Virus record (IMG/VR): IMGVR_UViG_3300025009_000019
Length of the DNA: 53,374 nt
Reading direction: 5' to 3' (one strand)
From: a virus
Shown: positions 8,581 through 53,374 of the stretch, one piece after another
How the letters are laid out: the number at the start of each line of letters is the position of its first letter
How positions within the stretch are numbered: position 1 is the stretch's first letter
The notes under the pieces: generated by a model
Seen by the model: only the letters and a program-made list of their open reading frames with translations
Database searches by the model: none
Told to the model about the DNA's origin: nothing
Made by a program: the position numbers and the translations under genes

Positions 8581-8582
8581 GT

Positions 8583-11003: not shown

Positions 11004-11425
11004 TATTTCTTAAAACTATTAATTAAACAAACGAAAGAGTAAATACTCTCTTTATAAATATCGATATATCTATTACTCATTTTTTGCACATCTGAATAAA
11101 TATCTTTAAACGTATAATTTGCAAATGTAGATTGAATTTCTTGAATTTTAGCATCGGACAACATCGCAAAGGTCAATTTATCACGCTCGCCATTAGCAAC
11201 TTTTGCATATAATTCTGTTGCTTCTTTCATCAATCTGATATATTCCAATTGCTTTTCGTTTGTACCAAATTCTGTCAAATACTCATCGCATATTTCTAAC
11301 CATAATTCAGCTAAATTTAACGAGTGTTTTTCTTTTGGATTTTTTAATAAATAGGTCAAATCATTCGTTTCGTGAATTTTATACCAGTTAAATATAGGCA
11401 AATTATGTATAGATGTATAGTTCAT
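11003..11425 (-). CDS. Hypothetical protein, paralog of 12424..12864 (tail-assembly-chaperone position)
   Basis: The N-terminus MNYTSIHNLPIFNWYKIHETNDLTYLLKNP aligns with MNYYHRISTLPMLRFHLINKTGDLTLLLKSP. Confidence 0.5.
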   Translation of the reverse strand: MNYTSIHNLPIFNWYKIHETNDLTYLLKNPKEKHSLNLAELWLEICDEYLTEFGTNEKQLEYIRLMKEATELYAKVANGERDKLTFAMLSDAKIQEIQSTFANYTFKDIYSDVQKMSNRYIDIYKESIYSFVCLINSFKK

Positions 11426-11874
11426 ATTAATTTCATTATTTCAGCTTGAATTAACGGCAATAGATATTCTTGCAATTTCACGGTGTTTTCATCGGTTAAA
11501 CCTACAATATCAATTCCGAAGTCTTCGTATAGATTTGACTTTTTGCCTGTTTTTGTATCGAATTTATCAGGGTTTGCAACTATTTCAATATCTTCTTTAT
11601 ATACTTTTACTTCAAAACTTTCGTAAAATTCGCCTGTTTCAAATAAAGTGATTCTATCATATGGCAAACCACTATCAATTTTACGGTCAATGGTAAATGG
11701 AGCATAGTCTCCTAGTGATTTACCTTTACTGTCGATACCTTTTTCGTAGAGCTGTTCTTTCGTGTTTAGTTCTATTACAAACCAACGGACATCAAATCGA
11801 GAGAATATGTCCTGCATTAAATTGCTAAGGCTTAACTTTATAAATCTGTCGCACATTTCTAATACATCGCTCAT
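11422..11874 (-). CDS. Hypothetical protein (start moved to internal Met, MSDVLEMC...)
   Basis: The ORF track extends to 11919, but that N-terminal extension is hydrophobic junk. Confidence 0.45.
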   Translation of the reverse strand: MSDVLEMCDRFIKLSLSNLMQDIFSRFDVRWFVIELNTKEQLYEKGIDSKGKSLGDYAPFTIDRKIDSGLPYDRITLFETGEFYESFEVKVYKEDIEIVANPDKFDTKTGKKSNLYEDFGIDIVGLTDENTVKLQEYLLPLIQAEIMKLI

Positions 11875-17483: not shown

Positions 17484-18623
17484 TTATAATGTTTCTGTCC
17501 ATTTTTTAATTATTTCGTCTGACTTTCTTAAATAGTTTTTTTCTTTTAATTGTTCAGGGGTATAATTCACATTTTCGCCAAATGTCCATTTTTTACTCGT
17601 AATATTTCCTTCCCAATCACATAATAGTATTCTTTTAACTTGATATTTAAAACAATCATCGTCGTTAATATGTTGTAATCTTGTCCACATCCATTTAAAC
17701 ACCTTAGATAATTCAGGGTTAATACTTTCTAATAAAAAATCTCTATATTCTTTCCAATTTTTAAAATTTTGTGGTAGTTTTTTAATAGAATAAATTAAAT
17801 TTTCTTTACCATAAATAGCAGCCGTGTGAACTCCATGTAATCGTTCTTCTAATTTATCGTATGTTTCAGGTTCTAATTCTTGTAAATCAGTTAAACATCT
17901 AAAAGCCTTTTCGTGTATTAAATTAGAAACTCTAAAATATCTTAAATTTCCACCAATCATATACATTTTGTCGTATATTTTATTATACTTAAAATTATTA
18001 TCAATTATATATTTCCAAACATCTGTATATCTCCAGTCAATTAATGGATAAGCTCTATGTGGCTCATTTTTTCGTCTTAACCAAAATAAATTACTATCCT
18101 CACCAAACATTACAAAATTTCTATCTGGGCTTTCTTCTGCTCTTAATCCAATTATTGAAACACTTTTACCTTCTAATTTACGAAGATTTTGACCTACCCA
18201 CAAATTAAATTTATGAAATCTTTTAGGATATTTATTTTCTATTTTGTGAATTGCAATAGGGTGTTTTTCTCTAACCCATTTTTCTTCTTCACCCCAAGCC
18301 CATAAAAATAACTGTTGATGACTTGCTGCGTTTGTCATAAAAATAGCAACTTGATACCATAATGGAATTACATTTGGTTGCGTCATTGCCCATTCCATAA
18401 AATCAATTGTGCCTTGATATTCGGCTTCTTGGTCTTGAAAATAAAGAATAAACTTTCTATTTCTTTTTTTCGCCTCTTCGTTTACTAAATGAAATAATGC
18501 TGTACTATCTTTACCACCTGAAAATGATAAAGAAATATTATCATAATTATCGAATAAAAACGATATTCTTTTTAGAGTTGATTCTAATACATTTTCAATA
18601 CCTCTTATTGATGTTCTTCCCAT
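17484..18623 (-). CDS. PAPS-reductase-family protein, IbrA-like
   Basis: PP-loop motif SFSGGKDST near the N-terminus and a long C-terminal extension. Adjacent to a ParB-like gene. Confidence 0.6.
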   Translation of the reverse strand: MGRTSIRGIENVLESTLKRISFLFDNYDNISLSFSGGKDSTALFHLVNEEAKKRNRKFILYFQDQEAEYQGTIDFMEWAMTQPNVIPLWYQVAIFMTNAASHQQLFLWAWGEEEKWVREKHPIAIHKIENKYPKRFHKFNLWVGQNLRKLEGKSVSIIGLRAEESPDRNFVMFGEDSNLFWLRRKNEPHRAYPLIDWRYTDVWKYIIDNNFKYNKIYDKMYMIGGNLRYFRVSNLIHEKAFRCLTDLQELEPETYDKLEERLHGVHTAAIYGKENLIYSIKKLPQNFKNWKEYRDFLLESINPELSKVFKWMWTRLQHINDDDCFKYQVKRILLCDWEGNITSKKWTFGENVNYTPEQLKEKNYLRKSDEIIKKWTETL

Positions 18624-18991: not shown

Positions 18992-19536
18992 ATTTCATCA
19001 TATTTTATATCACTTTCAACTTCAACAATTTGTCGTTCAATTGAGTATGGAACTCCTTTAATTTCTGAAGCAATACCACGTAATCCTATTAATCTTTGAA
19101 CTTCTTCAAGTGTCATTCCAAGTTCTTTCATAATTTTTAATTCATCCCAACCATCTTTTAACATTACGACTAAAGATGCTTGCAATTCTACTTCATGTTT
19201 TCCTCTTGCTCTATTATGGCGAATTGTTGAAGCCATTCTATCGCTTAAATCTTTTAATATTACTGAAACTGGCATACATCCGTTTTCTCTATCGAAAATA
19301 TCTTTATGTTTTATCATAATTAAGTGTCTATGATAACCATCAACAAGAATATATTTATCTCTTTCTTTATCATAAAAACAGACAATCGGCATAGTATAAC
19401 CATCACATTTAATACTTTGGTATAATAAATCCATTTCTCTTTTGGCTACGTGATTTGGATTGTAATCATTAGCCTCAATTTTTTCTAATGGTACAGCAAT
19501 TACATTGTATACCGGACTTCTAAAAATTTCTTTCAT
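18988..19536 (-). CDS. ParB/sulfiredoxin-like nuclease-domain protein, IbrB-like
   Basis: Motifs VDGYHRH and TIRHNRARGKH. Translationally coupled to the neighbouring genes. Confidence 0.55.
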   Translation of the reverse strand: MKEIFRSPVYNVIAVPLEKIEANDYNPNHVAKREMDLLYQSIKCDGYTMPIVCFYDKERDKYILVDGYHRHLIMIKHKDIFDRENGCMPVSVILKDLSDRMASTIRHNRARGKHEVELQASLVVMLKDGWDELKIMKELGMTLEEVQRLIGLRGIASEIKGVPYSIERQIVEVESDIKYDEI

Positions 19537-20717
19537 AATATTTCTTTTAATTGTTGCGATGTTTTACTTTTAAAATATTCTAATAATTTTGATTTTCTGT
19601 CGATATTATCATTTATTAATTTTTCTAATCCTATGTTTCCTGTTAAATCATAAAAAATACAATCTTGCTTTTGACCTGTGCGAAAAATACGCCTTTCTAC
19701 TTGCTCACGTTGAGCATAATCCCACGTTTTATCCCAAAAAATAATAACATTATTATCTTGTAAATTTAATCCAAAACTATGCTTTTGCAAACTCATAATC
19801 TTAATATCTTTGTAATATTTTTTTAATGTATTTTGCGTATCAATATATTTTGCATAAATAAGTATTTTTGACTTATCTAATGTTTCAATTAATTTATCAA
19901 CAATAGTAAATTTATCAGGACTTAATGAATAATTATGTTGCATTTTTTGAGTGATTTCTAAAAATATATTATTATTTTTTGCCATTAAAACTTCATTATC
20001 TAAATACTTATTTTTTAGATTATTGTGTTCTTGAATTTCTTCATCTGATAAATTATAATTAATATTTATGTGTTGCTGTCCAATACTTAAAGATAACTTG
20101 CTTTCAAAAATAAACGGTTCAATTAACGAATATAAATAATCAATATTGTGATATTGTTTGATAAATTCTTTAATTATTTTTCCACCTTGTTTAATTTGAA
20201 TATACTCGCAAAAAGTGTTTTTAAATTCTGCGAAAGACATATTTAATATTTTCGGACTTAAAAAATAAATCTGCGAATATAAATCAAGTAAATTTTTGCT
20301 TAGTGGAGTTCCGTTTAGAATTAGTCTAAATTTAGATAGTTTAGATATTTCAATCATTCTCTTTGTCCTTTTTGCATCTGAATTTTTAATCTTTAAACTT
20401 TCGTCAATTATAACAAATGAATTTTCTGATTTTTCTAACTTTTTTAATATTTCTAAATAAATTCTATCTGAATTTTGGATGCTTTCTATTCCGATAATTT
20501 CACAATCTAAACCACCCCACTTATTTAATTCTTTTAATAAATTTTCTTTCGTTTGAAAAGGAGTAAACCATATGATTAAATCAGTTTCGGTGTTTTTTAT
20601 TAATTCTAATGATGAAAGTGTTTTTCCGGTTCCAGCATCCATAAATAACGCACCGCATTTTACGCTTTTTAGCTTATCTATTGCCTTAGATTGACTATTT
20701 AAAAAGACTTTCGTCAT
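19533..20717 (-). CDS. SNF2-family helicase-like ATPase
   Basis: Walker A DAGTGKT, IIDESLKIKN, and the SNF2 motif III-like LILNGTPLSKNLLDLYSQIYFLSP. Confidence 0.6.
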   Translation of the reverse strand: MTKVFLNSQSKAIDKLKSVKCGALFMDAGTGKTLSSLELIKNTETDLIIWFTPFQTKENLLKELNKWGGLDCEIIGIESIQNSDRIYLEILKKLEKSENSFVIIDESLKIKNSDAKRTKRMIEISKLSKFRLILNGTPLSKNLLDLYSQIYFLSPKILNMSFAEFKNTFCEYIQIKQGGKIIKEFIKQYHNIDYLYSLIEPFIFESKLSLSIGQQHININYNLSDEEIQEHNNLKNKYLDNEVLMAKNNNIFLEITQKMQHNYSLSPDKFTIVDKLIETLDKSKILIYAKYIDTQNTLKKYYKDIKIMSLQKHSFGLNLQDNNVIIFWDKTWDYAQREQVERRIFRTGQKQDCIFYDLTGNIGLEKLINDNIDRKSKLLEYFKSKTSQQLKEIL

Positions 20718-21440: not shown

Positions 21441-21465
21441 TTTTTAACACATTATTTTATGAATA

Positions 21466-21495
21466 TTTGACGAATTTACAAAAATCTTTGACGAA
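21466..21495 (-). promoter_or_regulatory. Two copies of the intergenic motif TTCGTCAAA (minus sense)
   Basis: Plus-strand TTTGACGAA at 21466-74 and 21487-95. The same 9-mer recurs in 5 other intergenic regions. Confidence 0.5.
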
Positions 21496-21522
21496 TGTAT
21501 TATTTTTCCTGATAAACAAAAC

Positions 21523-22400: not shown

Positions 22401-22544
22401 TTTAGAGTTGAAATTTGTATGTGATCAGCTTCTTTAAATTGCCACTTTAATTGTACCGTCTTCGTTATTTTAAATTCCACTTACGAACATTATGTTATTG
22501 ATTATTAATTATATGATGTTTGGTAACCATTCGGCAACCAACTT

Positions 22545-22590
22545 GTTATAAGCAAGGCAAAGACACTCCGAATAAACGTCCGTGCCAAAC
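22545..22590 (-). ncRNA. Structured element, family A copy 1: 31-nt hairpin (22556-22586) followed by the box GCTTATAAC
   Basis: Minus sense: GGCACGGACGUUUAUUCGGAGUGUCUUUGCC-UUGCUUAUAAC. It is near-identical to 40900-40930 and related to 33880-33925. The stem needs G-U pairs in the minus sense. Confidence 0.5.
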
Positions 22591-22595
22591 TTAAA

Positions 22596-23276
22596 TTAGT
22601 CGTTATAAGTTGACCATTCAGTTTCAATATTTCCCAAATCACATTCAATAGTACAACCCATTGCATATAATTTGAAAAGAAATAAATCAAACCCCCTTAA
22701 TCCTATTTCAGTTATAGGATGCAATGCAGCTCCTTCGATTGTTGGAGAATATAAGCTTTTTGATTTCCCGTCAATCATTAATTTATACCTGCACTGGTAT
22801 CTGTGCGTTTTCTTTTCCGCGCTTTCATCAAATGCTATATGAATAGTGCCATAATCTGAAACTTCATGGATAAAGGCAATTTCTCCGCTTTCACCGTATT
22901 CGTCAGGTATTACTTCCTCTTCTTTATATTTTTCAATAATTTCAGAAAGTTTCCATTCTTTCTTTTCTAAAGCACCAACAAAGTTTTTAATCATTTCTTT
23001 AGCTGGTGCAATTCCGATTTCAACAACACTTTTGTTTAATTCAAATTCTACTAAATCGGTAAGCGTTTTTGAATACTGAACAAAATCGAGTTTTTCAAAA
23101 CCTTCAATTATTTTAGCATTCAATTTTTCTTTGAACGACTTATTTACATCGCTCCAACTTGAAAGGGAATCATTTATAATTCCATTAATAAAACCAGTAA
23201 CTTGTTTTGTTACAATTTCATCAAGTTTACCGTTTTCGGTAAGTTCTTTAATTTTGTCACTAATCAATTTTTCCAT
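22596..23276 (-). CDS. Hypothetical protein, bracketed by the 10-bp inverted repeat GTTATAAGCA/TGCTTATAAC
   Basis: 226-aa ORF. The repeat arms are at 22545-22554 and 23324-23333. Confidence 0.55.
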   Translation of the reverse strand: MEKLISDKIKELTENGKLDEIVTKQVTGFINGIINDSLSSWSDVNKSFKEKLNAKIIEGFEKLDFVQYSKTLTDLVEFELNKSVVEIGIAPAKEMIKNFVGALEKKEWKLSEIIEKYKEEEVIPDEYGESGEIAFIHEVSDYGTIHIAFDESAEKKTHRYQCRYKLMIDGKSKSLYSPTIEGAALHPITEIGLRGFDLFLFKLYAMGCTIECDLGNIETEWSTYND

Positions 23277-23320
23277 TTTTTTTAAGTGTTTATGTATTAA
23301 TAATTTGACTGATAATTAAA

Positions 23321-23460
23321 CCCTGCTTATAACTTCGGCTAACCCGGCAAGTCAGGCAACCGTGGTTTCCGATCGGTGCAGCCCGTGTTAACTTTCGCTC
23401 TGATAGGAAAGTGAATCGCTTCGCACCCTGCCCTGCGTGTAGCCTTTAATGTTAGGCTTC
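23321..23460 (-). ncRNA. GC-enriched structured intergenic element (E2)
   Basis: Minus sense starts GAAGCCUAAC and ends GUUAUAAGC. Contains local hairpins AGCCU-N8-AGGCU and CGG-GUUAG-CCG. Shares GGCAGGG...CCUAUCAG with element 38662-38797. Confidence 0.45.
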
Positions 23461-23640: not shown

Positions 23641-23739
23641 TTTCTTTATGCTATTAGTTTAATAATCTGAAACAAAGCACGAAACGCCAATACTCAACCG
23701 TTACCATAAAACTACACACAATTTCACAATCATTCAAAT

Positions 23740-23928
23740 TTATTTGACTAACGGTTTATTTATTTTGACAAACATCTTTTCTCGAACGATTAAAGTTTTT
23801 TCATCTTCGGTTAAAGTTAAATGATAGTTGCCTAAATTAATCAACTGCTTAACCGCTTTGGCAATAGTTTCGTCAATCGTATAACGTCCGATTGGCTTGC
23901 TTAGTATCTTAGTTTGCAGGTCGGTCAT
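23740..23928 (-). CDS. Small hypothetical protein
   Basis: 62-aa ORF. Confidence 0.4.
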   Translation of the reverse strand: MTDLQTKILSKPIGRYTIDETIAKAVKQLINLGNYHLTLTEDEKTLIVREKMFVKINKPLVK

Positions 23929-29382: not shown

Positions 29383-29422
29383 ATCTCGAAATTACTTATT
29401 AAATCAATATCTTTTTTGAAAT

Positions 29423-29431
29423 TTTGACGAA
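29423..29431 (-). promoter_or_regulatory. TTCGTCAAA motif copy
   Basis: Plus-strand TTTGACGAA in the intergenic region 29383-29459. A degenerate copy, TTTGATTAACG, lies nearby. Confidence 0.4.
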
Positions 29432-29459
29432 CGGTTGTAATAATTTGATTAACGTCATT

Positions 29460-29786
29460 TTATAAAGCTGCAATTAGTTCATTCAATTTATCGGAATCTT
29501 TTATCGTATACCATAAATCTTTTAATTCTTTTTTGGTTTCTTTTAATTCCTTTTCAATTTTGGACTGTTTTGGATTTTCTATTTCAGCGTTAAAATATTC
29601 AACAGCTTGATTTTCTTGCATAAATTCACGGAAAATCTTTCCATTATGCCATATTTGAATTCCTCCGTAATATGTTAATCGCATCTCTTTTTCCGTTGCC
29701 GGACATATTGCAAACCGCATAGTTTCGTTGTTCTTATATTTATGAATGTCTTTTACTTCTAGTTTTAATTTTTCTAATTTGCTCAT
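29460..29786 (-). CDS. Hypothetical protein
   Basis: 108-aa ORF. Confidence 0.45.
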   Translation of the reverse strand: MSKLEKLKLEVKDIHKYKNNETMRFAICPATEKEMRLTYYGGIQIWHNGKIFREFMQENQAVEYFNAEIENPKQSKIEKELKETKKELKDLWYTIKDSDKLNELIAAL

Positions 29787-31839: not shown

Positions 31840-31871
31840 CGAAAGTACACAAAATAAAAATGTGTGTCAAA
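31840..31871 (-). promoter_or_regulatory. Bacteroidetes-type promoter (TTTG-N20-TACTTTCG) with its -33 box inside a palindromic operator
   Basis: In the minus sense, TTTG is at 31871-31868 and the -7 box at 31847-31840. The operator TGTGTCAAATTTTTAACACA (31863-31882) matches 21432-21451 at 19 of 20 positions. Confidence 0.4.
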
Positions 31872-31896
31872 TTTTTAACACACATTTTTTAATAGT

Positions 31897-31905
31897 TTTG
31901 ATGAA
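31897..31905 (-). promoter_or_regulatory. Variant TTCATCAAA motif copy
   Basis: Plus-strand TTTGATGAA, upstream (minus sense) of the promoter at 31840-31871. Confidence 0.35.
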
Positions 31906-33523: not shown

Positions 33524-33574
33524 ATTTCTAATTTTACCGAAATTTAAATATTACGTTTTTATCTGCGAAATTTA

Positions 33575-33604
33575 TTTGACGAATGAATTTGATTATTTGA
33601 TGAA
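33575..33604 (-). promoter_or_regulatory. Two copies of the TTCGTCAAA / TTCATCAAA motif
   Basis: Plus-strand TTTGACGAA at 33575-83 and TTTGATGAA at 33596-604. Confidence 0.45.
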
Positions 33605-33608
33605 CGGA

Positions 33609-33836
33609 TTAAAACGGTAGTATTTCTCGCTCAGGTTTAAAAAGCATCGGTTTTAATTTAGTCAACGAAATAAACGTTTTTCCAAACCAATAACCAATAC
33701 ATCTATTATTATAAGATTGCTTTATTTGCCTATCGGTTTTTAAATTATATAGCAAATTATCGTTTCCAAATCCATAGCCGTCAACATCTTTTATTAACCA
33801 TTTTATTTTTATATGTTTTTCAATAGATAATTTCAT
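33609..33836 (-). CDS. 75-aa protein, possibly NUMOD4-like DNA-binding (start moved to MKLSIEKH)
   Basis: IKWLIKDVDGYGFGNDNLLYNLKTDRQIK loosely resembles the W..I.gy.gY.vS..G.v motif of homing-endonuclease N-terminal domains. The track ORF extended to 34049 runs through a non-coding element. Confidence 0.35.
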   Translation of the reverse strand: MKLSIEKHIKIKWLIKDVDGYGFGNDNLLYNLKTDRQIKQSYNNRCIGYWFGKTFISLTKLKPMLFKPEREILPF

Positions 33837-33879
33837 TGATACTGAATTGTTTATGACTTGGTAAACTTTCAACAACCAA

Positions 33880-34071
33880 CTTGTTAGGCACAAGCGGGTA
33901 CGATAAACGACCGTAGATAATTTTGCTGCAAAAAGACAAGAAAATGGAAACAGCCGACCCACAAAACAGCACATTTGCAAACCGCTCCAGCCGACACAAA
34001 ACCAAAGTTTGCAAAAGAGCTGTTTTCTTGCCGACGCACCCAAGCCCACCCACCACCCTATTGGATGACAA
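33880..34071 (-). ncRNA. Non-coding structured region E3: family-A-like hairpin plus box (33880-33925) and a G/U-rich (minus sense) element colinear with 38093-38237
   Basis: CTTGTTAGGCAC (33880-91) is the reverse complement of 38238-49. The 8-mers AGCACATT, CAAAACCA and AAAGAGCT occur in the same order as in E4. Confidence 0.45.
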
Positions 34072-34121
34072 GTTGAAAGACTGTTAATAAATTTTTGATA
34101 ATAGATACTTTTTATTTATAG

Positions 34122-34156
34122 GGACATATTATATTTGGACAATATTTGTCAGGACT
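34122..34156 (+). promoter_or_regulatory. Candidate C-box operator and -7 box upstream of the controller gene
   Basis: GGACATATTATATTTGGACAATATTTGTCAGGAC contains repeated GGACA, the inverted GACA-N5-TGTC, and TATATTTG (34130-37) matching TAnnTTTG. Confidence 0.35.
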
Positions 34157-34164
34157 AAAATGTT

Positions 34165-34479
34165 ATGATACAAAAAGAATCTTTTGGAGAGTTAATTAGA
34201 AAACTTAGGGAAGGTGAGGGACTTCCTCTTAGGAAAGTTGCAGCCCAGCTTGACATTGACCCATCGACACTTGGGAAAATAGAAAGAAATGAACGAACTG
34301 CGAATAAAGAAATGATTGAAAAATTGGGTGAAATTTTTTCAATAGACTCAGAACAACTACTAATCTCATTTTTGAGTGACAAAGTTGCTTTTGAATTAAT
34401 GAAAGAAGACTGTGCTAATGATGTCCTAAAGGTTGCAGAAGAGAAGGTTAAGTATTTTAAGAAGACAACTAAAATCTAA
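34165..34479 (+). CDS. XRE-family HTH controller (C) protein of the R-M island
   Basis: LRKVAAQLDIDPSTLGKIERNER is a classic HTH. It is the first gene of the only plus-strand operon. Confidence 0.6.
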   Translation: MIQKESFGELIRKLREGEGLPLRKVAAQLDIDPSTLGKIERNERTANKEMIEKLGEIFSIDSEQLLISFLSDKVAFELMKEDCANDVLKVAEEKVKYFKKTTKI

Positions 34480-34494
34480 TAGGTTCGAGTAAAA

Positions 34495-36831
34495 ATGACA
34501 GTAAAAGAAAAATCATATATTCTACAAGAAGAAGCTCCACAATTAATGGTTTCCGACCAACAATTGGAATTGTTTCGTGATTTGGAATTAGCAAAATACA
34601 ACGATAGTGATTTATATAACGGCAAATCTAAAAATAAATTAAATGTAGTTTCTCTATTTACTGGTGCTGGTGGGTTAGACATAGGTTTTAAAGAAGCAGG
34701 GTTTAACTGTGTATTTGCATCTGATATTATGCCTCAAGCAGAGACTACTTACAATTATAATTTTCCATCAACACCTTTCGTAAGAAAAGACGTCAGGTTG
34801 CTTTCTAAGGAAGAAATAGAGAATTTGATTGGTAAAAACAAAATTGATGTGCTAATTGGTGGACCTCCTTGTCAAGGTTTCTCAAATATGGGGAATAAAA
34901 ATTCATCAGACCCTAGAAATTATCTGTTTGAAAATTATGTGAAGATTGTGGAGACAATACAACCCAAATGTTTTCTTTTTGAAAATGTGAAAGGATTATT
35001 TACAATGTTTGAAGGTCGTTTTTTTGATAAAGTCGTAAATGCATTTTTAGAAATTGGTTATAATGTTTCTTACTCTATGATTGATTCGTCTAAATATGGC
35101 GTACCTCAAAAAAGGGAGAGGATAATAATTTTCGGTACTAAGATTAATAGGTCATTTAGATTCCCTAAACCAAATTCAAAATCATTTGGTAGAATAAGTG
35201 CCTTTTCAAATGTTGGTGAAGCTATAAACGATTTAATGCAACTAGAAAATAGATACCCAAATCATGTTCCATTAAATCACAATGAAATAGTTGTTCAAAG
35301 ATATAAACTTATCCCAGAAGGTGGAAAATTGCCAAAACCTGAGGAACTTCCTGAAGAAATTAGAAGGAAAAATTTTGGAAATACATACACAAGATTAAAC
35401 AGAAAGGAAGTCTCATCAACAATAGTTCCTGGCAATAATGCTTTACCTGTTCATCCAGTTTTAAATAGGAGTTTGACAGCTCGTGAAGCTGCAAGAATTC
35501 AAACGTTTCCTGATTATTTTATTTTTAGAGGGGATAGACGTTCCCAATGTATTCTTGTTGGTAATGCTGTGCCTCCATTACTTGCAGCCAAGTTGGCAGA
35601 ATGCGTTGCAAATTTTATTAATGAAATTGAATATGATGGAATAAGTCCTGATGGTCAAGCAAAAGTTGGCACTAAATTTTCTCGTCATAAAGTTAACACA
35701 GTAAAGAAAAATGGGCGTGCAAATTTAAAATTCGCTGATTTATTTAGTGGTGTTGGTGGTTTTACGCAAGGCTTAGAAGCTGCTGGACTTGAATGTGTTT
35801 TAGGTGCAGATTTTGATGAATATGCTGTTGAAGCATATCGTAGAAACCATTCTTCCCATGAATGTTTGAAAATAGACCTAGCTGACCCTAAAAATCAAAA
35901 GATAGTAGCTGATAGGTTGAAAAAAGAAAAAGTTGATTTAATAGTTGGAGGGCCTCCTTGTCAAGGATTTTCTATTTTTGGGAAAAGACGATTTGTAAAC
36001 ACAAAGAATCATGATTTAAAAAAAGACAAAAGAAACGATTTGGTGTTTGCATTTGCAAATATTGTAATAAGGTCAAATGCAAACTGGTTTATTATGGAAA
36101 ATGTTCCAGGTATTCTTTCAGCACATAGTGGTTCTTATGTTGAGGAAGTAAGAAATTATTTTTTAAAACATAAATATAAAACGGAAATAAAAATCATAAA
36201 TGCAGCAGATTATGGTGTTCCTCAGTTGAGAAAGCGCTTTATTTTGTTTGGTACTAAGACAGACCTCATGATTCCATTTCCAAAACCAAAATATTTTGAA
36301 ACACCTGAATCATGGCAACTGCCATACAGAACAGTTGGTGAAGTTTTAACTGACTTATCTAACGAAAAAACATTAGGCAAATATCAAAATCATTTTGCAC
36401 CAAACCATTCTCCAATAATTGTGGAAAGATTTTCATACATAAAAGAAGGACAAAAATTGGAAATTGAATCTTTACCAGAACACTTGAAGAATGGTACTAA
36501 GACTGGCAAACCAATGGCAAACTACAGTCATGTTTTTAAACGTTTACATAGGAAAAAACCTGCTGGCACTATTGTTCCTGGTCATAATGCATTCCCTGTT
36601 CATCCAACATTAAATAGAACTTTAACTGTGAGGGAAGCTGCAAGAATTCAAACGTTTCCAGATAATTATGAATTTGTTGGTCCAATAATAAATCAATGTT
36701 TACAAGTAGGTAATGCTTTCCCTTGTTTAGTCGCTCAAATTTTTGGGGAAAGGCTTAGAACAGTAATAAATAAAGAATGGAGTGAAGAAAGTGCGACTCA
36801 TTTAGCTAAATACTCAATGTTAGAAAAATAA
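34495..36831 (+). CDS. Fused double C5-cytosine DNA methyltransferase (two complete Dcm-like domains)
   Basis: Domain 1: FTGAGGLDIGF, GGPPCQGFS, FENVKGL, QKRERIIIFG, GNAVPP. Domain 2: FSGVGGFTQGL, GGPPCQGFS, MENVPGI, QLRKRFILFG, GNAFPC. Confidence 0.85.
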   Translation: MTVKEKSYILQEEAPQLMVSDQQLELFRDLELAKYNDSDLYNGKSKNKLNVVSLFTGAGGLDIGFKEAGFNCVFASDIMPQAETTYNYNFPSTPFVRKDVRLLSKEEIENLIGKNKIDVLIGGPPCQGFSNMGNKNSSDPRNYLFENYVKIVETIQPKCFLFENVKGLFTMFEGRFFDKVVNAFLEIGYNVSYSMIDSSKYGVPQKRERIIIFGTKINRSFRFPKPNSKSFGRISAFSNVGEAINDLMQLENRYPNHVPLNHNEIVVQRYKLIPEGGKLPKPEELPEEIRRKNFGNTYTRLNRKEVSSTIVPGNNALPVHPVLNRSLTAREAARIQTFPDYFIFRGDRRSQCILVGNAVPPLLAAKLAECVANFINEIEYDGISPDGQAKVGTKFSRHKVNTVKKNGRANLKFADLFSGVGGFTQGLEAAGLECVLGADFDEYAVEAYRRNHSSHECLKIDLADPKNQKIVADRLKKEKVDLIVGGPPCQGFSIFGKRRFVNTKNHDLKKDKRNDLVFAFANIVIRSNANWFIMENVPGILSAHSGSYVEEVRNYFLKHKYKTEIKIINAADYGVPQLRKRFILFGTKTDLMIPFPKPKYFETPESWQLPYRTVGEVLTDLSNEKTLGKYQNHFAPNHSPIIVERFSYIKEGQKLEIESLPEHLKNGTKTGKPMANYSHVFKRLHRKKPAGTIVPGHNAFPVHPTLNRTLTVREAARIQTFPDNYEFVGPIINQCLQVGNAFPCLVAQIFGERLRTVINKEWSEESATHLAKYSMLEK

Positions 36832-36835
36832 TATT

Positions 36836-38092
36836 ATGTCAGTAAATCATCATCTTCTTGCAAAAGCAACAACTGATTCAGTTTTAGCAAATTTTAAATC
36901 AGGTGCATGGAAATGTTGCACAGATGTAGGTTTAGATTTTTATAGAGTTGGTTGTGATAGCAGTTTCCCTTCTCCTGATGCAGCCTTCTACGATGATGCA
37001 AAAAAGTTAATGGTAACATTTGAGTTCAAGCCACCCACAGAAACTAAAAGAGGTATTTTGACGGGGTTGGGTCAATCTATTGCATATTTAAATAGTAGCA
37101 ACTTGTCATACCTTATTGTGCCACAAACATTAGAGGATTATGATATTGGTGGCTACATGACAAATTTATATCAAAACCAAATTGAAGAAAGTCTACCAGT
37201 CGGTTTAATTGTTTATGAGAACAATGCACCAACAAAAGTTTCGCTTATTCATAATGTAAATACTCTAACTAAAACAAAGGAATTTAAAGCTATAGCAAGT
37301 GGTAGGTTTTGGGCAAAACACTTAGATATGCCAATACCTTTATTTCATTTAATTCTCCATTGCTATTATTTAAAAAAAATAGGCCAAATTACTGGCGATG
37401 CATTTGCTTATTGTTGGGAAACATATTTAGTTCCAAATAGTGTTTTAAAAACATTAACTCCAACTGCAATTAAGGATATGAATGGAGATTTCATTGAAAC
37501 TTTGTCTGGAAGAAAGAATATTATCTTTTTTGAGAAGAAAATAGCAGCACTTAAAAAGTTATCTGGAGCAACTAAAGGAAAGGCTATAGCAGACTTACGA
37601 CAAGATGCTGATACATCATTTATTGGAGATAATTATTACAATTCTATTAAGAAAAATTTTGTTACATTTTTAAAACATATTGGAGTAGTTGATTCAATTG
37701 GTCATTTAACAGAGGAGGGTTTTAAACTTTATCATTTAGGCTTAGTTAATGGTCCAAACAGTAAAATATTCCAAGACTACTTTACACAAACGGTTTTAAT
37801 TACTGGTCACCATTTAGATTTGATTTTTGATTTGGACAACTTATGTAATCAATTCAGGGGCAAATATGAGATTATGAAAATCAGAGAAATAATGCTGGAA
37901 GATTATGAGGCGAGAGGAATGATTAAAAGAAATCCAAATAGAAAAGCTGGTGATGAAAGTAAGGTTGAGTTTCTAAAATATGAATTTATTTTATGGAATT
38001 CATTAAATTTAACAGTAAAGACAAATGGTACACCTGATGTTTCTTTTAATTGGAAAAAAATAACAGAAGTTTGTTCTATGCCTGATTTATAA
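36836..38092 (+). CDS. Restriction endonuclease candidate (N-terminal PD-ExK motif)
   Basis: SPDAAFYDDAKKLMVTFEFKPP gives D...ExK. It starts 4 nt downstream of the methyltransferase stop. Confidence 0.5.
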   Translation: MSVNHHLLAKATTDSVLANFKSGAWKCCTDVGLDFYRVGCDSSFPSPDAAFYDDAKKLMVTFEFKPPTETKRGILTGLGQSIAYLNSSNLSYLIVPQTLEDYDIGGYMTNLYQNQIEESLPVGLIVYENNAPTKVSLIHNVNTLTKTKEFKAIASGRFWAKHLDMPIPLFHLILHCYYLKKIGQITGDAFAYCWETYLVPNSVLKTLTPTAIKDMNGDFIETLSGRKNIIFFEKKIAALKKLSGATKGKAIADLRQDADTSFIGDNYYNSIKKNFVTFLKHIGVVDSIGHLTEEGFKLYHLGLVNGPNSKIFQDYFTQTVLITGHHLDLIFDLDNLCNQFRGKYEIMKIREIMLEDYEARGMIKRNPNRKAGDESKVEFLKYEFILWNSLNLTVKTNGTPDVSFNWKKITEVCSMPDL

Positions 38093-38237
38093 GCCCACGC
38101 TTCGTAGTCAAGCACATTGGCTGGTCGCACAAAAATCCAACACGCGACCAAAACCAGCCAAAGAGCTTGCCTACCCAAACGCACGTGGAAACATTGCAGC
38201 AAATTGACAGATAAAATGATAAAAATAAAAATCGCCA
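38093..38237 (-). ncRNA. Non-coding structured region E4, colinear with part of E3
   Basis: Hairpin GGTCGC-N15-GCGACC nested in CTGG/CCAG. Shares ordered 8-mers with 33968-34021. An AT-rich tract at 38195-38235 follows the E5 stem in the minus sense, giving a terminator-like U-run. Confidence 0.4.
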
Positions 38238-38375
38238 GTGCCTAACAAGCGGTCATAAAACATTGGGGGTTAAGTGGTTAATCGAGCGTTCTACCTCGCA
38301 TCAAGGTTCGGTATCGGGGGATACATTCGCAGCTCCGAAAACCCCAACGTTTCATACCGCCGTCCGTTATAGGCA
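38238..38375 (-). ncRNA. Structured RNA candidate E5, homolog of E7
   Basis: 19-bp closing stem 38249-68 / 38342-60 has two G-U pairs and one bulge in the minus sense (A-C mismatches in the plus sense). Outer boxes are TGCCTATAAC (minus sense, 38375-66) and GTTAGGCA. Inner hairpin GUAUC-CCCC-GAUAC. A roughly 60-nt core is conserved with 40046-40179. Confidence 0.55.
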
Positions 38376-38645
38376 ATACGGTTTGGTGCATTTAATAAAC
38401 TTTGGTTTTTTGTTCAAATAAATGAATTCGTTCCACCAACCAGTACAAGGTAATATCCAATATTGAAAACTATACCATTGGTAGGTTTTTGTTTTCCCCC
38501 CAGTTCCTCTTGATGCTATATTACCATCTGCCATTAAATCGAAACTATGTAATGTATAGTTTTCAATTCGCTTCTCAGTACATTTTGTAAGTCGAACAAA
38601 AAACCACTGAAAGAAAAATACGTTTACTGCTTTTAATTTAGTCAT
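38367..38645 (-). CDS. Hypothetical 92-aa protein, exactly bracketed by the 10-bp inverted repeat GTTATAGGCA/TGCCTATAAC
   Basis: The stop codon lies inside the box at 38366-75. The partner box at 38662-71 lies 16 nt upstream of the ATG. Confidence 0.45.
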   Translation of the reverse strand: MTKLKAVNVFFFQWFFVRLTKCTEKRIENYTLHSFDLMADGNIASRGTGGKTKTYQWYSFQYWILPCTGWWNEFIYLNKKPKFIKCTKPYCL

Positions 38646-38661
38646 ATCGTTAAAATTGCAC

Positions 38662-38797
38662 TGCCTATAACAACAAATATAAAACAGCAGGGCAGTATTA
38701 CTGAATTATAATGTGTGCTACTATTCATCATTTGTGGTCGGCTGATAGGGTTTTGCACTTAATCCCTGCCGTTTCATATTTGCAGCCGTTACCTGCA
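38662..38797 (-). ncRNA. Structured RNA candidate E6
   Basis: 18-bp stem 38675-92 / 38764-81 is perfect in the minus sense with two G-U pairs. The 5' box is TGCAGGTAAC (minus sense) and the 3' box GTTATAGGCA. Confidence 0.55.
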
Positions 38798-38819
38798 AGT
38801 GTAAGAAACTGCACAGCCA

Positions 38820-40004
38820 TTAATGAGCCTTGAAATTATAGAGTGGTTTAATCACTCCGATAATATCAACGGTTTCAGTAATTGCAGATTTAATTTCATC
38901 AATTGATTTATAAGCCTGTGGAGCTTCATCCAAAGTTTCAGTAACAACCGAAGTTGTATAAACATCTTTCATTGTTTCAACAAAATCAGCCATATTAATA
39001 GCTTCTTTTGCTTTGCTTCGGCTCATTAATCTACCTGCTCCATGAGGTGCTGAATAGTTCCAGTTTTCATTTCCTTTGCCAATACACAATAAAGAACCAT
39101 CACGCATATTAATTGGAATAAGCAATGTTTCCCCATTTTCAGCAGAAACCGCACCTTTTCTCAAAATCATGCGTTTAAAATCAATGTAGTTGTGTATTGT
39201 TTCAAATCGTTCAGCTTCTTGCAAACCAGCTTCTTTTAAAATAATTTCAGCCATTGTTTCACGGTTCAAAGTCGCAAATTTTTGAACAATAGCCATATCA
39301 TTCATATAGTCGGCAAAGTTATTACCAGTTAAAAAGGCTAAATCCTTATCGGTTACAGGCTTTTTAATCTTCTTAATTTCGGCTGCAATTTCTTTTTCTC
39401 TACCTTCTGCTTTTAGTTTGTCAATTGCATTTTTAACAACTTTGCTCATTTCATTGGCATTTTGAAAGGCTTTATCTTGGTAATACTTACAAGTATCACC
39501 GCCTAATTTTCGGCTTCCTGAATGTATAATCAAATACAGTTCGCCAGTTATTTCATGTTTGCCGACTTCAATAAAATGGTTTCCACCACCAAGCGAACCA
39601 ATTGAAAGCACTGCACGGCTTAAATTAACGTGTTTTTCACAGCGTAAATTTGTAAAGTCGAAATCTTTCTTTGATTTTTCGTGAACACTAAAACCACAAG
39701 GCACTTTAGTTTTAATTACTTCGTCCAGTTTTTCAAAGTCAATTTCTTTGTTTTTGAGCTTAATTGTAAGCATTCCGCAACCAATATCAACACCTACCAA
39801 ATTTGGAGTTACTTTGTCGGTTATAGTTATTGTTGTACCAACTGTACAACCTTTACCAGCGTGTGCATCAGGCATAATTCGCACATTTGCATTTTCATAC
39901 GCTTCAAAGTTTACCAGTTTTTTAATTTGGTCATACGCTTCAAATTCAAATGTTTCAGCGAATATTAGCGTTTCAATTCCTTTGTTATTTTTAATCGTTT
40001 TCAT
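38820..40004 (-). CDS. rtcB: RNA 3'-phosphate/2',3'-cyclic-phosphate to 5'-OH ligase RtcB
   Basis: Motifs DAHAGKGCTVGTT, GGGNHFIE, HSGSRKLG and PHGAGR in a 394-aa protein. Confidence 0.85.
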   Translation of the reverse strand: MKTIKNNKGIETLIFAETFEFEAYDQIKKLVNFEAYENANVRIMPDAHAGKGCTVGTTITITDKVTPNLVGVDIGCGMLTIKLKNKEIDFEKLDEVIKTKVPCGFSVHEKSKKDFDFTNLRCEKHVNLSRAVLSIGSLGGGNHFIEVGKHEITGELYLIIHSGSRKLGGDTCKYYQDKAFQNANEMSKVVKNAIDKLKAEGREKEIAAEIKKIKKPVTDKDLAFLTGNNFADYMNDMAIVQKFATLNRETMAEIILKEAGLQEAERFETIHNYIDFKRMILRKGAVSAENGETLLIPINMRDGSLLCIGKGNENWNYSAPHGAGRLMSRSKAKEAINMADFVETMKDVYTTSVVTETLDEAPQAYKSIDEIKSAITETVDIIGVIKPLYNFKAH

Positions 40005-40045
40005 ATCGTAAAATTAAGAATATTAATAAATTAGTACAAACACCA

Positions 40046-40179
40046 GCAGGTAACACAAGCTATAACCAATAAAGGTTTTAGTGGTTAATCAAACGTTGTA
40101 GCTCGCATCCAGTTCGGTATCGGTTGATAGTGCATCGCTCCGTAATCCTTTACTGGTAATAGCCACAAACGTTACCTGC
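40046..40179 (-). ncRNA. Structured RNA candidate E7, homolog of E5, immediately upstream of rtcB
   Basis: Self-closing 9-bp boxes GCAGGTAAC / GTTACCTGC (40046-54 / 40171-79). 17-bp stem 40059-75 / 40147-63 with one G-U and one U-U in the minus sense. Conserved core CGGAGC..UAUC-NNCC-GAUACCGAAC..GAUGCGAG..GAUUAACCACU. Confidence 0.55.
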
Positions 40180-40182
40180 AAT

Positions 40183-40476
40183 TTATTTTACCCCACGCTC
40201 CTTCTGCATTTGTTCCAGTCGTTCTTGAAATCGGCTTTTCTTGCCTACCTCTGTAAAGTTTTTAATTTCGCTCTTGTTTTTAACTGCGAACACAGCACTT
40301 GCAATAAACATCAATAGTGCTACTCCTGCACATATTAAAATCATCCAAACGCTCCACCAATTAAAAACTTTGTCCTTCACCAAGTAGAGTATAAATTCTA
40401 CTATCGCCCAAATTGATGATGCTACTGCTCCTAAGTAGGCAAGAAAAGCCGTTACTCCTGTTAATATTGTTTTCAT
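40183..40476 (-). CDS. 97-aa membrane protein (three hydrophobic segments)
   Basis: Hydrophobic segments GVTAFLAYLGAVASSIWAIVEFILYLV and WMILICAGVALLMFIASAVFAV. Confidence 0.5.
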   Translation of the reverse strand: MKTILTGVTAFLAYLGAVASSIWAIVEFILYLVKDKVFNWWSVWMILICAGVALLMFIASAVFAVKNKSEIKNFTEVGKKSRFQERLEQMQKERGVK

Positions 40477-40517
40477 TTTTAAATTTGTTTAATGCCTCCC
40501 TTAGTAAAATAAACTGA

Positions 40518-40620
40518 CAGGTAACAAGGGCTTGGCAAAATGCCACCAATCAGCTTTGTGCCTTGAATTTTATCGGTTGCTTGGTGGCACTATCGCCAAG
40601 CCCCGTCCGTTATAGCCAAT
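40518..40620 (-). ncRNA. Structured RNA candidate E8
   Basis: Nested perfect stems GGGCTTGGC/GCCAAGCCC (40528-36 / 40595-603) and TGCCACCAA/TTGGTGGCA (40541-49 / 40581-89). Shares the 13-mer CCGTCCGTTATAG (40603-15) with E5 (38360-72). Confidence 0.55.
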
Positions 40621-40873: not shown

Positions 40874-40943
40874 GGTTATAGCTTCATCGTTAGTAGCAAG
40901 GCAAAGACGCTCCGATTGAACGTCCGTGCCAAGCATTTAGATT
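40874..40943 (-). ncRNA. Structured element, family A copy 3 (hairpin 40900-40930) plus TAAC-type boxes
   Basis: Minus sense GGCACGGACGUUCAAUCGGAGCGUCUUUGCC-UUGCUACUAAC. Differs from copy 1 by a C/U change that keeps a pair (G-C versus G-U). Confidence 0.5.
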
Positions 40944-41077: not shown

Positions 41078-41860
41078 TTAAATTAAATTAATTCCCTCTA
41101 CTACTCCACTTCCAAGCCCATTCTTTTCAGAAGTAGTATTCGGGTTTATTGGGCTTATTTTTATGAAAAATTTATCTTTATCAAAATGTTGTTTAATCTT
41201 TTTAATATCAAAGTCTTTTTCTTCTACCAGCGTTAAGTTTATGGTAGTTTTCAAATTGCTTTCGGTTCTTACATTTCCAAGTTGCTCAATGGTCATTTTG
41301 TTTTTGAATGGTATTAGCCAATTCCTATGCTCTTCATCCAAGCTATGCAAAGAAAGTTGCAGCGTCAGATTGTCTTTTATCCAAGTAAAATCAGCATCTT
41401 TCAAACCAATAGTTGAAATATAGTGGTGTGTATTTGGGTAGTGTTGGCTTATTTTTTCAATTGCCTTTTTTACGTTTTCAATATTTAAAAACGGTTCTCC
41501 CATTCGGGTATAGTTTATTTTAAACTCTTTACTATCCAATGGGTTTATGTTGTTTTTAGCAATTATAAACTCAACTTGGGTTGTAATTTCTTGCCAAGTC
41601 AAATTACGCCAACTTTTCATTTGTCCAGTTGCACAAAATTTGCATCTTACAGGGCATCCACTCATTACGCTTACTCCAACCATCCAGCGTTCCGAACGGT
41701 CGCTTAATTCGTAATTGTCTAGCATATTTTGCTTTCTACCTATTGCATCTTTTGTATAGTAAGGTAAAAAAGTATCGGTAGTTTCAATTAACATTCCGTC
41801 CTCTAATTCGAGGCAATAAACGCTACCGTTTTTAAAGTTCTTTTGTTTTTTAATTTTCAT
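41078..41860 (-). CDS. RlmN/Cfr-like radical-SAM enzyme, short form lacking both methyl-transfer cysteines
   Basis: The cluster SGCPVRCKFCATGQ and the motifs MGEPFLN, ISTIG, LQLSLHS and IKISPINP parallel RlmN GCALECKFC, MGMGEPLLN, LSTSG, LAISLHA and INLIPWNP. The C118-equivalent is Gly/Val, and the protein ends before the C355 region. Confidence 0.6.
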   Translation of the reverse strand: MKIKKQKNFKNGSVYCLELEDGMLIETTDTFLPYYTKDAIGRKQNMLDNYELSDRSERWMVGVSVMSGCPVRCKFCATGQMKSWRNLTWQEITTQVEFIIAKNNINPLDSKEFKINYTRMGEPFLNIENVKKAIEKISQHYPNTHHYISTIGLKDADFTWIKDNLTLQLSLHSLDEEHRNWLIPFKNKMTIEQLGNVRTESNLKTTINLTLVEEKDFDIKKIKQHFDKDKFFIKISPINPNTTSEKNGLGSGVVEGINLI

Positions 41861-43209: not shown

Positions 43210-43272
43210 TTTTAAATTAAGTTTAGTTTATGATTACGAAAATAATCATTATATCAATACGAAAATCTAAAT

Positions 43273-43302
43273 TTTGACGAACGTATTTATAATTTTGACG
43301 AA
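43273..43302 (-). promoter_or_regulatory. Two copies of the TTCGTCAAA motif
   Basis: Plus-strand TTTGACGAA at 43273-81 and 43294-302, just downstream (minus sense) of the endolysin terminator. Confidence 0.5.
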
Positions 43303-43304
43303 TG

Positions 43305-43335
43305 TAAATAAAAAAGGCTCGAATTAACAAGCCTT
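43305..43335 (-). terminator. Rho-independent terminator after the endolysin gene
   Basis: Minus sense AAGGCU-UGUUAAUUCG-AGCCUU followed by UUUUUAU. The stem overlaps the stop codon. Confidence 0.5.
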
Positions 43336-53230: not shown

Positions 53231-53374
53231 TTAGAGATTAAATAATACTTTTTTGTTTGATTTTGATTGTCGAGTGTCTTTTGACGGCTCGTTATTTTGT
53301 TGAGTGTTCTTCAACGGCTCAATTTTTCCTATGCTAATTGTCGGGGTTGCAAAATTACTACCAAGTGGAACAGC
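53231..53374 (-). CDS. 3' end of the prohead protease gene (same gene as 1..805)
   Basis: The frame carried across the junction reads ...SKSNKKVLFNL-stop, with the stop codon at 53231-53233. Confidence 0.6.
   Translation of the reverse strand, partial: AVPLGSNFATPTISIGKIEPLKNTQQNNEPSKDTRQSKSNKKVLFNL
53248..53374. repeat. Second copy of the terminal 127-bp sequence
   Basis: Identical to 1..127. Confidence 0.9.

Follow-up and report, generated by a model that had tools for sequence, protein, structure and literature searches.

Introduction

Gene cassettes of integrons, including those of sedentary chromosomal integrons, whose attC repeats, such as the VCRs of Vibrio, are long and homogeneous, carry attC sites whose core boxes follow the consensus RYYYAAC/GTTRRRY with a defined position of crossover (PMC5027507). 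Clusters of attC sites without an integrase (CALINs) have been reported in virulent as well as temperate phages, among them a Bacteroidota (Polaribacter) phage whose cassettes encode methyltransferases, and restriction-modification (R-M) systems in integron cassettes have also been reported already (Qi et al. 2023, PMC9892861). Here we describe a 53,374-nucleotide stretch of viral DNA (IMG/VR record IMGVR_UViG_3300025009_000019), which in its full length is referred to as the window and from whose first letter all positions are counted. The segment 33884-38366 of this window is, with good confidence, an integron-type gene cassette that contains a complete and self-regulated type II R-M operon, probably of type IIS.

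With integron cassettes and VCRs (PMC5027507) the segment and its relatives share the RYYYAAC/GTTRRRY boxes, the G↓TT crossover (the arrow marks the point of exchange), an imperfect hairpin of ~135 nt with an asymmetric unpaired spacer, a remnant of the cassette's own R' box at its start, polar arrays next to a tyrosine recombinase with a fixed attI site, and an attC that is conserved within the family. In contrast to VCR-type integrons, the recombinase is co-oriented with the array and scores below the curated IntI threshold, the island cassette, with three genes in 4.5 kb, is large and is equipped with a promoter of its own, and one attC family spans several Bacteroidota families. With phage CALINs (PMC9892861) the locus has in common several attC-type sites and cassettes and the lack of an integron integrase. 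Whereas among the cassettes of the phages described there only methyltransferase genes are reported, the R-M system described here is complete and includes the nuclease; moreover, a near-identical chromosomal copy fixes the exact junctions, and the other phage cassettes lie antisense to the attC polarity.

Type II R-M operons that are regulated by a controller (C) protein include the PvuII, AhdI and Esp1396I systems. The operon in the window resembles them in the small helix-turn-helix (HTH) gene upstream, the palindromic boxes over its own promoter and the gene order controller-methyltransferase-restriction enzyme (C-M-R), whereas its operator, of the GGAC/GACA...TGTC type, was matched to no characterised C-box group. 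For the nuclease, the closest described enzymes are of the PaqCI/BspMI type IIS (PDB 8em1, 8epx), and in PaqCI the nuclease domain, with the catalytic residues D54/E73/K75, is N-terminal and the recognition domain C-terminal (PMC10201449). The nuclease of the window, a protein of 418 aa, shares the N-terminal nuclease domain, the helical C-terminal recognition domain and a D...ExK motif at the equivalent position. It differs in its sequence (12-14% identity), in its length (~90 residues shorter) and in its partner, a fused double methyltransferase that would produce 5-methylcytosine (m5C).

Boundaries of the mobile unit

Comparison of the window with the JGI contig L023 reveals 99.93% identity over 4485 bp (window 33883-38367, contig 7048-11532), flanked on both sides by unrelated sequence. 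L023 belongs to the Bacteroidota, as its first gene encodes a CUB protein with a sorting domain of the type IX secretion system. On the left the identity breaks off precisely at G↓TTAGGCAC, on the right at CCGTCCG↓T, and the mobile unit is therefore 33884-38366, recombined between G and T.

33884-38366, plus strand: mobile R-M gene cassette of 4483 bp, TTAGGCAC...CCGTCCG, with a near-identical copy in L023
33873-33883, plus strand: phage target site CAACCAACTTG, whose last base is the G of the G↓TT crossover; the match with L023 begins at 33883
Junctions in the phage: left CAACCAACTTG↓TTAGGCAC, right CCGTCCG↓TTATAGGCAAT
Junctions in the bacterium (L023): left CCACGGGAACG↓TTAGGCAC, right CCGTCCG↓TCAGACTG

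The near-identical copy in an unrelated genomic context shows directly that the cassette was acquired as a mobile unit, as a preliminary description of the window had proposed. The two copies differ only in three adjacent bases within the nuclease gene (window 37824-37826, L023 10989-10991), which encode I330/F331 in the phage and K/L in L023, with the phage retaining the family consensus LIFDL. The change in L023 could represent a mutation that attenuates the host copy, or else a mistake of the assembly. The circular form of the cassette is expected to have the junction CCGTCCG↓TTAGGCAC, reading CCGTCCGTTAGGCAC, and a phage without the cassette is predicted to read CAACCAACTTGTTATAGGCAA. No match to this 21-mer was found in viral contigs, and searches with the neighbouring genes for phage relatives with an empty site returned only non-syntenic mosaics. 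A paralogue of the target site is present at 22535-22545, within a 60-nt stretch (22489-22548) paralogous to 33827-33886 and adjoining another candidate cassette, and an exact 14-mer is common only to these two phage sites.

Such a unit could in principle be an assembly chimera, in which phage and bacterial contigs were joined via repeated hairpin elements. Metagenome assemblers can mis-join at repeats, and the right end of the island belongs to a repeat family that also occurs elsewhere in the phage. The left junction, however, is unique sequence without a repeat. Furthermore, positions 1-127 of the window are identical to 53248-53374, so that the assembly is circularly closed and corresponds to a complete phage genome of 53,247 bp, with PHROG matches for portal, large terminase, major head protein, tape measure and primase/helicase; two mis-joins that restore this circle would be needed. 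(The terminal overlap of 127 nt is as long as the k-mer that the contig names state for the assembler, k127.) The phage was assembled independently, into contigs of an equal length of 53,374 bp, in two metagenome runs from Rifle groundwater (PRJNA268031), with the left junction in the contigs of both runs (L025 and L026) and the complete island in one of them (L025). We consider a chimera extremely improbable.

The preliminary description had placed the limits of the island at a perfect 12-bp inverted repeat and at colinear copies of a ~100-nt element. Both features are real, but neither bounds the cassette. The repeat, CTTGTTAGGCAC at 33880-33891 and GTGCCTAACAAG at 38238-38249 (17 nt at 88% when extended), is not a transposon-like terminal repeat; since its core boxes and crossover fit integron attC, it is the split R'/R'' pair (GTTAGGC / GCCTAAC) of an attC-type site, to which the phage target contributes three extra bases. 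With the unit bounded at 33883/4 and 38366/7, the left arm spans the left junction, while the right arm is located within the unit, ~120 nt from its right end. The colinear elements, whose core is a hairpin of 65-75 nt, are both internal.

33963-34026, plus strand: hairpin-L (AAAACAGC-ACATT-TGCAAAC...GTTTGCA-AAAGA-GCTGTTTT), followed by TTTTCTT; folding z-score -3.3; upstream of the controller promoter
38104-38174, plus strand: hairpin-R, of the hairpin-L family; folding z-score -5.1; directly 3' of the nuclease stop codon

The combination GCACATT...AAAGAGC occurs twice, against 0.03 occurrences expected by chance. Both hairpins conserve the unpaired ACATT/AAAGA(G), and their stems differ in sequence yet still pair through compensating changes. 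Homologues of these hairpins, again with stems that compensate, lie behind the stop codons of a Bro-N gene in L023 (~2717-2785) and of the orthologous nuclease gene in the Chitinophagales locus L041 (~4476-4525). We infer that hairpin-L and hairpin-R act as terminators or insulators and protect the operon from antisense transcription of the phage. The presence of two colinear hairpins had also prompted a comparison with IS200/IS605-type or PATE ends. Elements of these kinds end a few to ~20 nt from their subterminal hairpins, insert 3' of a short target and lack inverted repeats. This candidate was rejected, as the ends are too far from the hairpins: the shared unit runs 80 nt past hairpin-L and 190 nt past hairpin-R, ends in an attC-type site and contains no TnpA gene.

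The attC-like site and its family

The right end of the cassette is formed by its own attC-like site.

38238-38366, plus strand: attC-like site H1 of the R-M cassette, with R'' GTGCCTAAC at 38238-38246 and, after circularisation, R' at G↓TTAGGCAC; 129 bits with covariance model R1

H1 is an imperfect hairpin of ~130-135 nt, and the reconstituted site folds with a 9-bp R box and a covarying stem. The boxes GCCTAAC at 38240-38246 and G↓TTAGGC at 33883-33889, which pair in the reconstituted site, match the integron core consensus RYYYAAC/GTTRRRY and its crossover position (PMC5027507). The breakpoints of identity to L023 coincide with G↓TT, the cassette begins with its own TTRRRY, and the spacer is asymmetric, with AA facing CGTCC. 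In general, attC sites are imperfect hairpins of 57-141 nt in which the central spacer is unpaired, some bases are extrahelical and the terminal structure varies.

Homologues of this element were found in the phage, in L023, in the viral contig L029 and in 11 genomes of Bacteroidota or Ignavibacteria. An alignment of 13 attC-like elements displays compensatory changes in 14 of the 22 stem pairs, and the covariance model R1 was built for the family. A strict regular-expression scan for RYYYAAC...GTTRRRY had missed real sites because integrated sites carry hybrid R' boxes, and a looser scan by energy produced too much noise in loci of high GC content; detection was solved by the covariance model. 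Rfam scans gave no match, and Rfam holds no attC family. A tRNA, an Rfam family or a group I intron in the GC-rich flanks was ruled out, with no tRNA detected by ARAGORN and no Rfam match at gathering or permissive thresholds. Within the window R1 recognizes three copies, all on the plus strand (38234-38380, 38659-38802 and 40042-40185), while in the bacterial loci (Bacteroidota, Ignavibacteria) its matches form arrays with a cassette-like spacing of ~600 nt to several kb.

A greater level of detail is offered by the relation between R'' and the cassette starts. For 14 of the 17 consecutive pairs of elements, R'', read as its reverse complement, agrees over 9-12 nt with the beginning of the cassette to which it belongs, taken from the G of the preceding element, whereas its agreement with the current downstream R' extends over only 3-6 nt in nearly all cases. 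This complementarity is the signature of cassettes that open with a remnant of their own recombination site. The locus L041, whose nuclease is 90% identical to that of the phage, has a different and shorter attC-like hairpin with the same complementarity between start and R''.

In the bacterial locus L031, a tyrosine recombinase is encoded upstream of the attC-like elements, with the integron integrase model TIGR02249 as its best NCBIfam match (215 bits). Relatives of this recombinase are abundant in Bacteroidota (at least 573 matches). Across 80 of their loci, R1 has 60 matches in 27 loci; all 60 lie downstream of the recombinase gene on the same strand, and none was found in the 8 kb upstream of it. 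In 17 of 23 loci the first cassette starts 95-120 nt past the recombinase gene, where the sequence ...TATAnAnAG↓TTA is conserved; this site is an attI. Downstream, co-oriented arrays and a fixed attI thus link the attC-like family to a dedicated recombinase platform. The phage target site, considered as a mimic of this bacterial attI, was rejected on comparison with the attI consensus, which indicates that insertion probably occurred in trans at a secondary G↓TT site.

Two side observations concern the recombinases. Many Bacteroidota contigs (among L049-L128, for example L053, L063, L069, L075, L080, L092 and L103) end 100-1000 nt past an IntI/Xer-like gene, as expected from assembly breaks in attC repeats, so that arrays are probably under-represented in metagenome-assembled genomes. 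The related viral contig L029 encodes a 283-aa Xer-like tyrosine recombinase (9679-10530, minus strand) ~500 nt from an attC-like copy at 11035-11178 and contains two further copies (2804-2947 and 3336-3477); some phages of this group may carry their own recombinase.

Alternatively, conserved intergenic hairpins might have served as sites of homologous or illegitimate recombination that moved the island, rather than integrase-mediated site-specific recombination. Modular shuffling of this kind is a proposed explanation of the promoter/stem-loop cassettes in T4-type phages. Conservation is high within the hairpin elements (94% between the copy at 40042-40185, H2, and L029), which could serve as homology patches, and the phage is without an integrase. 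However, the left phage junction has no hairpin element, yet identity begins there exactly at G↓TT. In addition, homologous exchange does not predict the 9-12 nt complementarity between start and R'', which is the trace of a circular intermediate that was opened at a constant position. The arrays are, moreover, polar, and they are linked to a recombinase whose attI is fixed. We regard this alternative as distinctly unlikely and favor movement as an integron-type cassette.

The restriction-modification operon

The cassette carries three genes behind one putative regulatory block.

34121-34155, plus strand: putative C-box/operator and promoter GGGACATATTATATTTGGACAATATTTGTCAGGAC, with the palindrome GACAATATTTGTC and a TAnnTTTG motif at 34130
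34165-34479, plus strand: controller (C) protein, 104 aa, HTH_3 (Pfam E 1.8e-9)
34495-36831, plus strand: fused double C5-cytosine DNA methyltransferase, 778 aa, two PF00145 stretches (E 7.7e-142)
36836-38092, plus strand: predicted restriction endonuclease, 418 aa, with an N-terminal PD-(D/E)xK domain (D48, E63, K65) and a C-terminal helical recognition domain

These three open reading frames (ORFs) are situated where the preliminary description had located them, and its view that they are the only plus-strand genes holds as well. All other credible genes of the window are on the minus strand, each remaining plus-strand ORF of at least 90 aa is nested within a longer minus-strand ORF, and the GC skew agrees, with a sign change confined to 34-38 kb. 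The transcription converging on the operon, which had likewise been anticipated, comes from a minus-strand 92-aa ORF (38367-38645).

The controller matches the PADLOC Control_protein models weakly, and in bacterial cassettes the equivalent position is occupied by orthologues of 71-76% identity. A block of palindromic GGAC/GACA...TGTC boxes 5' of the controller gene is conserved in the bacterial loci L015, L019 and L041, consistent with a putative C-box/operator function. The methyltransferase contains, as claimed before, two full motif sets, with FxGxG (I), PCQ (IV), ENV (VI), QxRxR (VIII), REAARIQTFP (IX) and GNAxP (X) each present twice, and thereby a complete C5 catalytic motif set. Its halves are 38% identical to each other and match two different PADLOC MTase_II models. 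Matches in NCBIfam add to those in Pfam and PADLOC as support for an R-M system.

For the 418-aa protein, the D...ExK motif that had been noticed downstream of the methyltransferase proved to be part of an invariant P47-D48...E63-x-K65 signature in an alignment of 64 homologues. The protein has more than 400 homologue clusters, nearly all of 411-422 aa. An AlphaFold model calculated from the 64-homologue alignment (pLDDT 88.9, pTM 0.80) gave PaqCI chains (8em1, 8epx) as its sole significant PDB matches in Foldseek, over the full length (E 1e-14, TM 0.66). By this fold match the nuclease domain is N-terminal and separate from the recognition domain, as in PaqCI, which independently backs the earlier guess of a type IIS-like system. 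A marginal sequence match between residues 59-100 and PaqCI 69-111 places E63/K65 on E73/K75, and the PADLOC REase_II model matches residues 56-143 (E 1.4e-6).

The genomic neighbourhood of the family points in the same direction. In every bacterial context examined, across several phyla, the 418-aa gene lies directly 3' of a double C5-methyltransferase gene of 733-780 aa. Among these contexts are Acinetobacter pittii, Ruminococcus, several Bacteroidota-type contigs and a small Acinetobacter plasmid, and an HTH controller gene is present 5' of the pair in about half of them. The more distant bacterial copies (L015-L021) share only 34035/34079-38092, at ~79% identity and with different flanks, and R1 detected no attC-like element in them. 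The three genes are a genuine C-M-R operon, as the methylase-nuclease pair recurs in many bacterial phyla with or without the controller. The R-M operon is probably of type IIS: the modelled nuclease architecture is of PaqCI type, and the doubled methyltransferase fits an asymmetric site.

One could also suppose that the 418-aa protein is not the cognate restriction enzyme but another PD-(D/E)xK nuclease, modification-dependent or active in repair, next to an orphan methyltransferase. The protein matches no Pfam or NCBIfam family, its homologues are labelled hypothetical in RefSeq, and its sequence similarity to known restriction enzymes is only marginal. Against this explanation, which we judge very improbable, across phyla its gene strictly adjoins that of the double methyltransferase, its fold matches that of a characterised type IIS enzyme over the full length with the catalytic residues aligned, and a controller protein with a C-box is typical of toxic nuclease genes. 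As a cognate R-M system, the operon would operate in analogy to the described ones. The controller would bind the palindromic boxes in its own promoter and delay expression of the nuclease, each half of the fused methyltransferase would methylate one strand of the asymmetric site, and the 418-aa enzyme, in the manner of PaqCI, would bind the site via its C-terminal domain, while its N-terminal PD-(D/E)xK domain would cut in the vicinity.

The same gene pair is also found at 3297-6776 of the 7-kb plasmid pBspH11 of Acinetobacter sp. NEB 394 (L022, NZ_CP055279.1), with 54% identity and with the second gene annotated as hypothetical; the strain is a New England Biolabs enzyme producer. No m5C motif is given in the paper on this strain. 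MhoVII was set aside as a guide to specificity, being an N6-methyladenine (m6A) system.

Further cassettes and other features of the phage

Next to the island, the phage contains a small array of other cassettes, and a candidate for a second array lies apart from it.

38367-38788, plus strand: next cassette, 422 nt; the 92-aa ORF (minus strand) and attC-like H5 (38659-38802), R1 62 bits
38789-40171, plus strand: RtcB cassette, 1383 nt; RtcB (Pfam, minus strand) and attC-like H2 (40042-40185), R1 131 bits
40172-40609, plus strand: cassette that combines a minus-strand membrane ORF of 97 aa with H3 (40517-40612), an attC-like hairpin of shorter length, R'' CAGGTAAC, -36.5 kcal/mol in the hairpin scan
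22546-23451, plus strand: candidate cassette of a second array; 226-aa ORF (minus strand) and hairpin H4 (23325-23458)

In the H5 cassette, R'' agrees as its reverse complement with 10 nt of the cassette start, and the RtcB cassette displays a complementarity of 9 nt between R'' and start. For H4, R'' CCTGCTTATAAC is complementary to the cassette start GTTATAAGCA; as H4 has no R1 match, it is a weaker candidate. In six other viral contigs (L009-L014), DNA similarity to the RtcB cassette is bounded essentially by the ends of the RtcB ORF (38819-40007), indicating that RtcB, an RNA ligase whose gene is framed in the window by two attC-like elements, behaves as a single-gene mobile module among these phages. 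Directly after the cassette starts we observed the motif GTTAnnnGCAAGG, followed by a small hairpin with a loop of the GA(T/A)TAAAC type; the stretches 22545-22588 and 40889-40932 are 89% identical in this region, with a weaker version at 33883-33920.

The orientation of the cassette ORFs differs between viral and bacterial arrays. Apart from the R-M island, they are antisense in both viral contigs (window 38234-40612 and L029); they are sense in L023, L031, L032, L034, L036 and L040. The antisense orientation could reflect the choice of strand in recombination or selection for read-through by phage transcription.

Apart from the R-M island, the window encodes a PAPS-reductase/DUF3440 protein (17484-18623), an SNF2-type helicase (19533-20717) and a radical-SAM protein (41078-41860), which may be further DNA- or nucleotide-modification functions of the phage. 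AT-rich intergenic repeats based on TTTGACGAA(T/C)G / TTTGA(T/C)GAAC, often in tandem, are candidate minus-strand phage promoters or regulator-binding sites.

21464-21517, 23736-23773, 29419-29476, 31860-31905, 33568-33611 and 43269-43326: AT-rich intergenic repeats

Probable transfer of the cassette and its possible role in the phage

Taken as an integron-type cassette, the R-M unit would have been excised or copied from a chromosomal cassette array of a Bacteroidota host. A host IntI/Xer-like tyrosine recombinase would then have inserted it at G↓TT into the phage site CAACCAACTTG↓TTATAGGC, at the edge of the small array already present in the phage (the cassettes with the 92-aa ORF, RtcB and the 97-aa ORF). 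The divergence of only three nucleotides, together with the absence of the nuclease family from phage records, points to a very recent transfer from host to phage. The analysis establishes the identities of the genes, the fold of the nuclease, the conservation of its gene neighbourhood, the exact limits of the cassette, the attC-like family with its covariation and array logic, and the link of this family to a recombinase with a fixed attI, whereas the acting recombinase, the direction of transfer, the benefit to the phage, the activity of the enzymes and the asymmetry of their site are inferred.

Several observations weigh against this interpretation. The extrahelical bases typical of attC cannot be assigned with confidence in the attC-like hairpin. 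All phage cassette ORFs except those of the island are antisense to the attC polarity, whereas the ORFs of bacterial arrays are sense, and since the R''/start test is symmetric with respect to strand, it does not define the polarity of these other cassettes. The L031 recombinase scores below the cut-off of TIGR02249 (215 against 265 bits) and about equally with the XerA model. Beside the phage array no integrase was found, and no tyrosine recombinase is detectable in the whole window; the L023 contig is too short to show one. The phage target site is unlike the bacterial attI consensus. As for the cargo, the type IIS status rests on the fold similarity, at 12-14% sequence identity, and on the doubled methyltransferase, and restriction and methylation are read here from the genes and a predicted fold.

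As to the role of the operon, the phage DNA would become m5C-methylated and would be protected from the identical system in cassette-bearing hosts, while the nuclease would attack unmethylated competitors or host DNA. Because a co-occurring bacterium carries the same system, self-methylation would be the most immediate benefit, and escape from the host's own R-M system is at least as plausible as host-DNA degradation or exclusion of competitors, which the preliminary description had favored and which is speculation. In favour of a phage that uses the operon as a weapon, degrading host DNA or excluding co-infecting phages, rather than for self-methylation or as a neutral or selfish passenger, all three genes are intact, the nuclease keeps the consensus at residues 330-331 where L023 deviates, the operon has its own promoter, C-box and flanking hairpins, and the complete island is present in one independently assembled phage contig, with the left junction in a second. 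On the other hand, the acquisition is very recent (3 nt in 4.5 kb), leaving little time for selection, and no homologue of the nuclease was found in 50,697 phage records, PHROGs or the viral structure library, which speaks against an established phage function. We consider use as a weapon possible but doubtful.

Conclusions

Relative to the published cases, the complete R-M cassette with its nuclease, the exact junctions and the Bacteroidota-wide attC family with its recombinase and attI are new. That one integron-type cassette, with junctions resolved to the base, is common to a phage and a bacterial chromosome is direct evidence of the movement of such cassettes between bacterial arrays and phage genomes, and it supports the proposed role of phages as carriers of integron cargo from cell to cell. 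The cargo in this case is a full restriction system, beyond a protective methylase alone. The family of the 418-aa protein, with more than 400 clusters that pass as hypothetical in RefSeq, probably comprises PaqCI-like type IIS enzymes and is thus a candidate for a new specificity of practical use, for which Acinetobacter sp. NEB 394 would be a convenient source. The conserved attC family with its recombinase/attI platform in Bacteroidota represents an experimentally tractable system.

Tentatively, and with somewhat less than even confidence, we propose that the phage lineage is an integrase-less integron platform, in which RtcB and the small ORFs are cassettes held in inverse polarity for phage transcription, and onto which the integrases of Bacteroidota hosts load new cassettes during infection. 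If this is true, lytic-type phages would be regular shuttles of a Bacteroidota-wide cassette pool with one conserved attC family.

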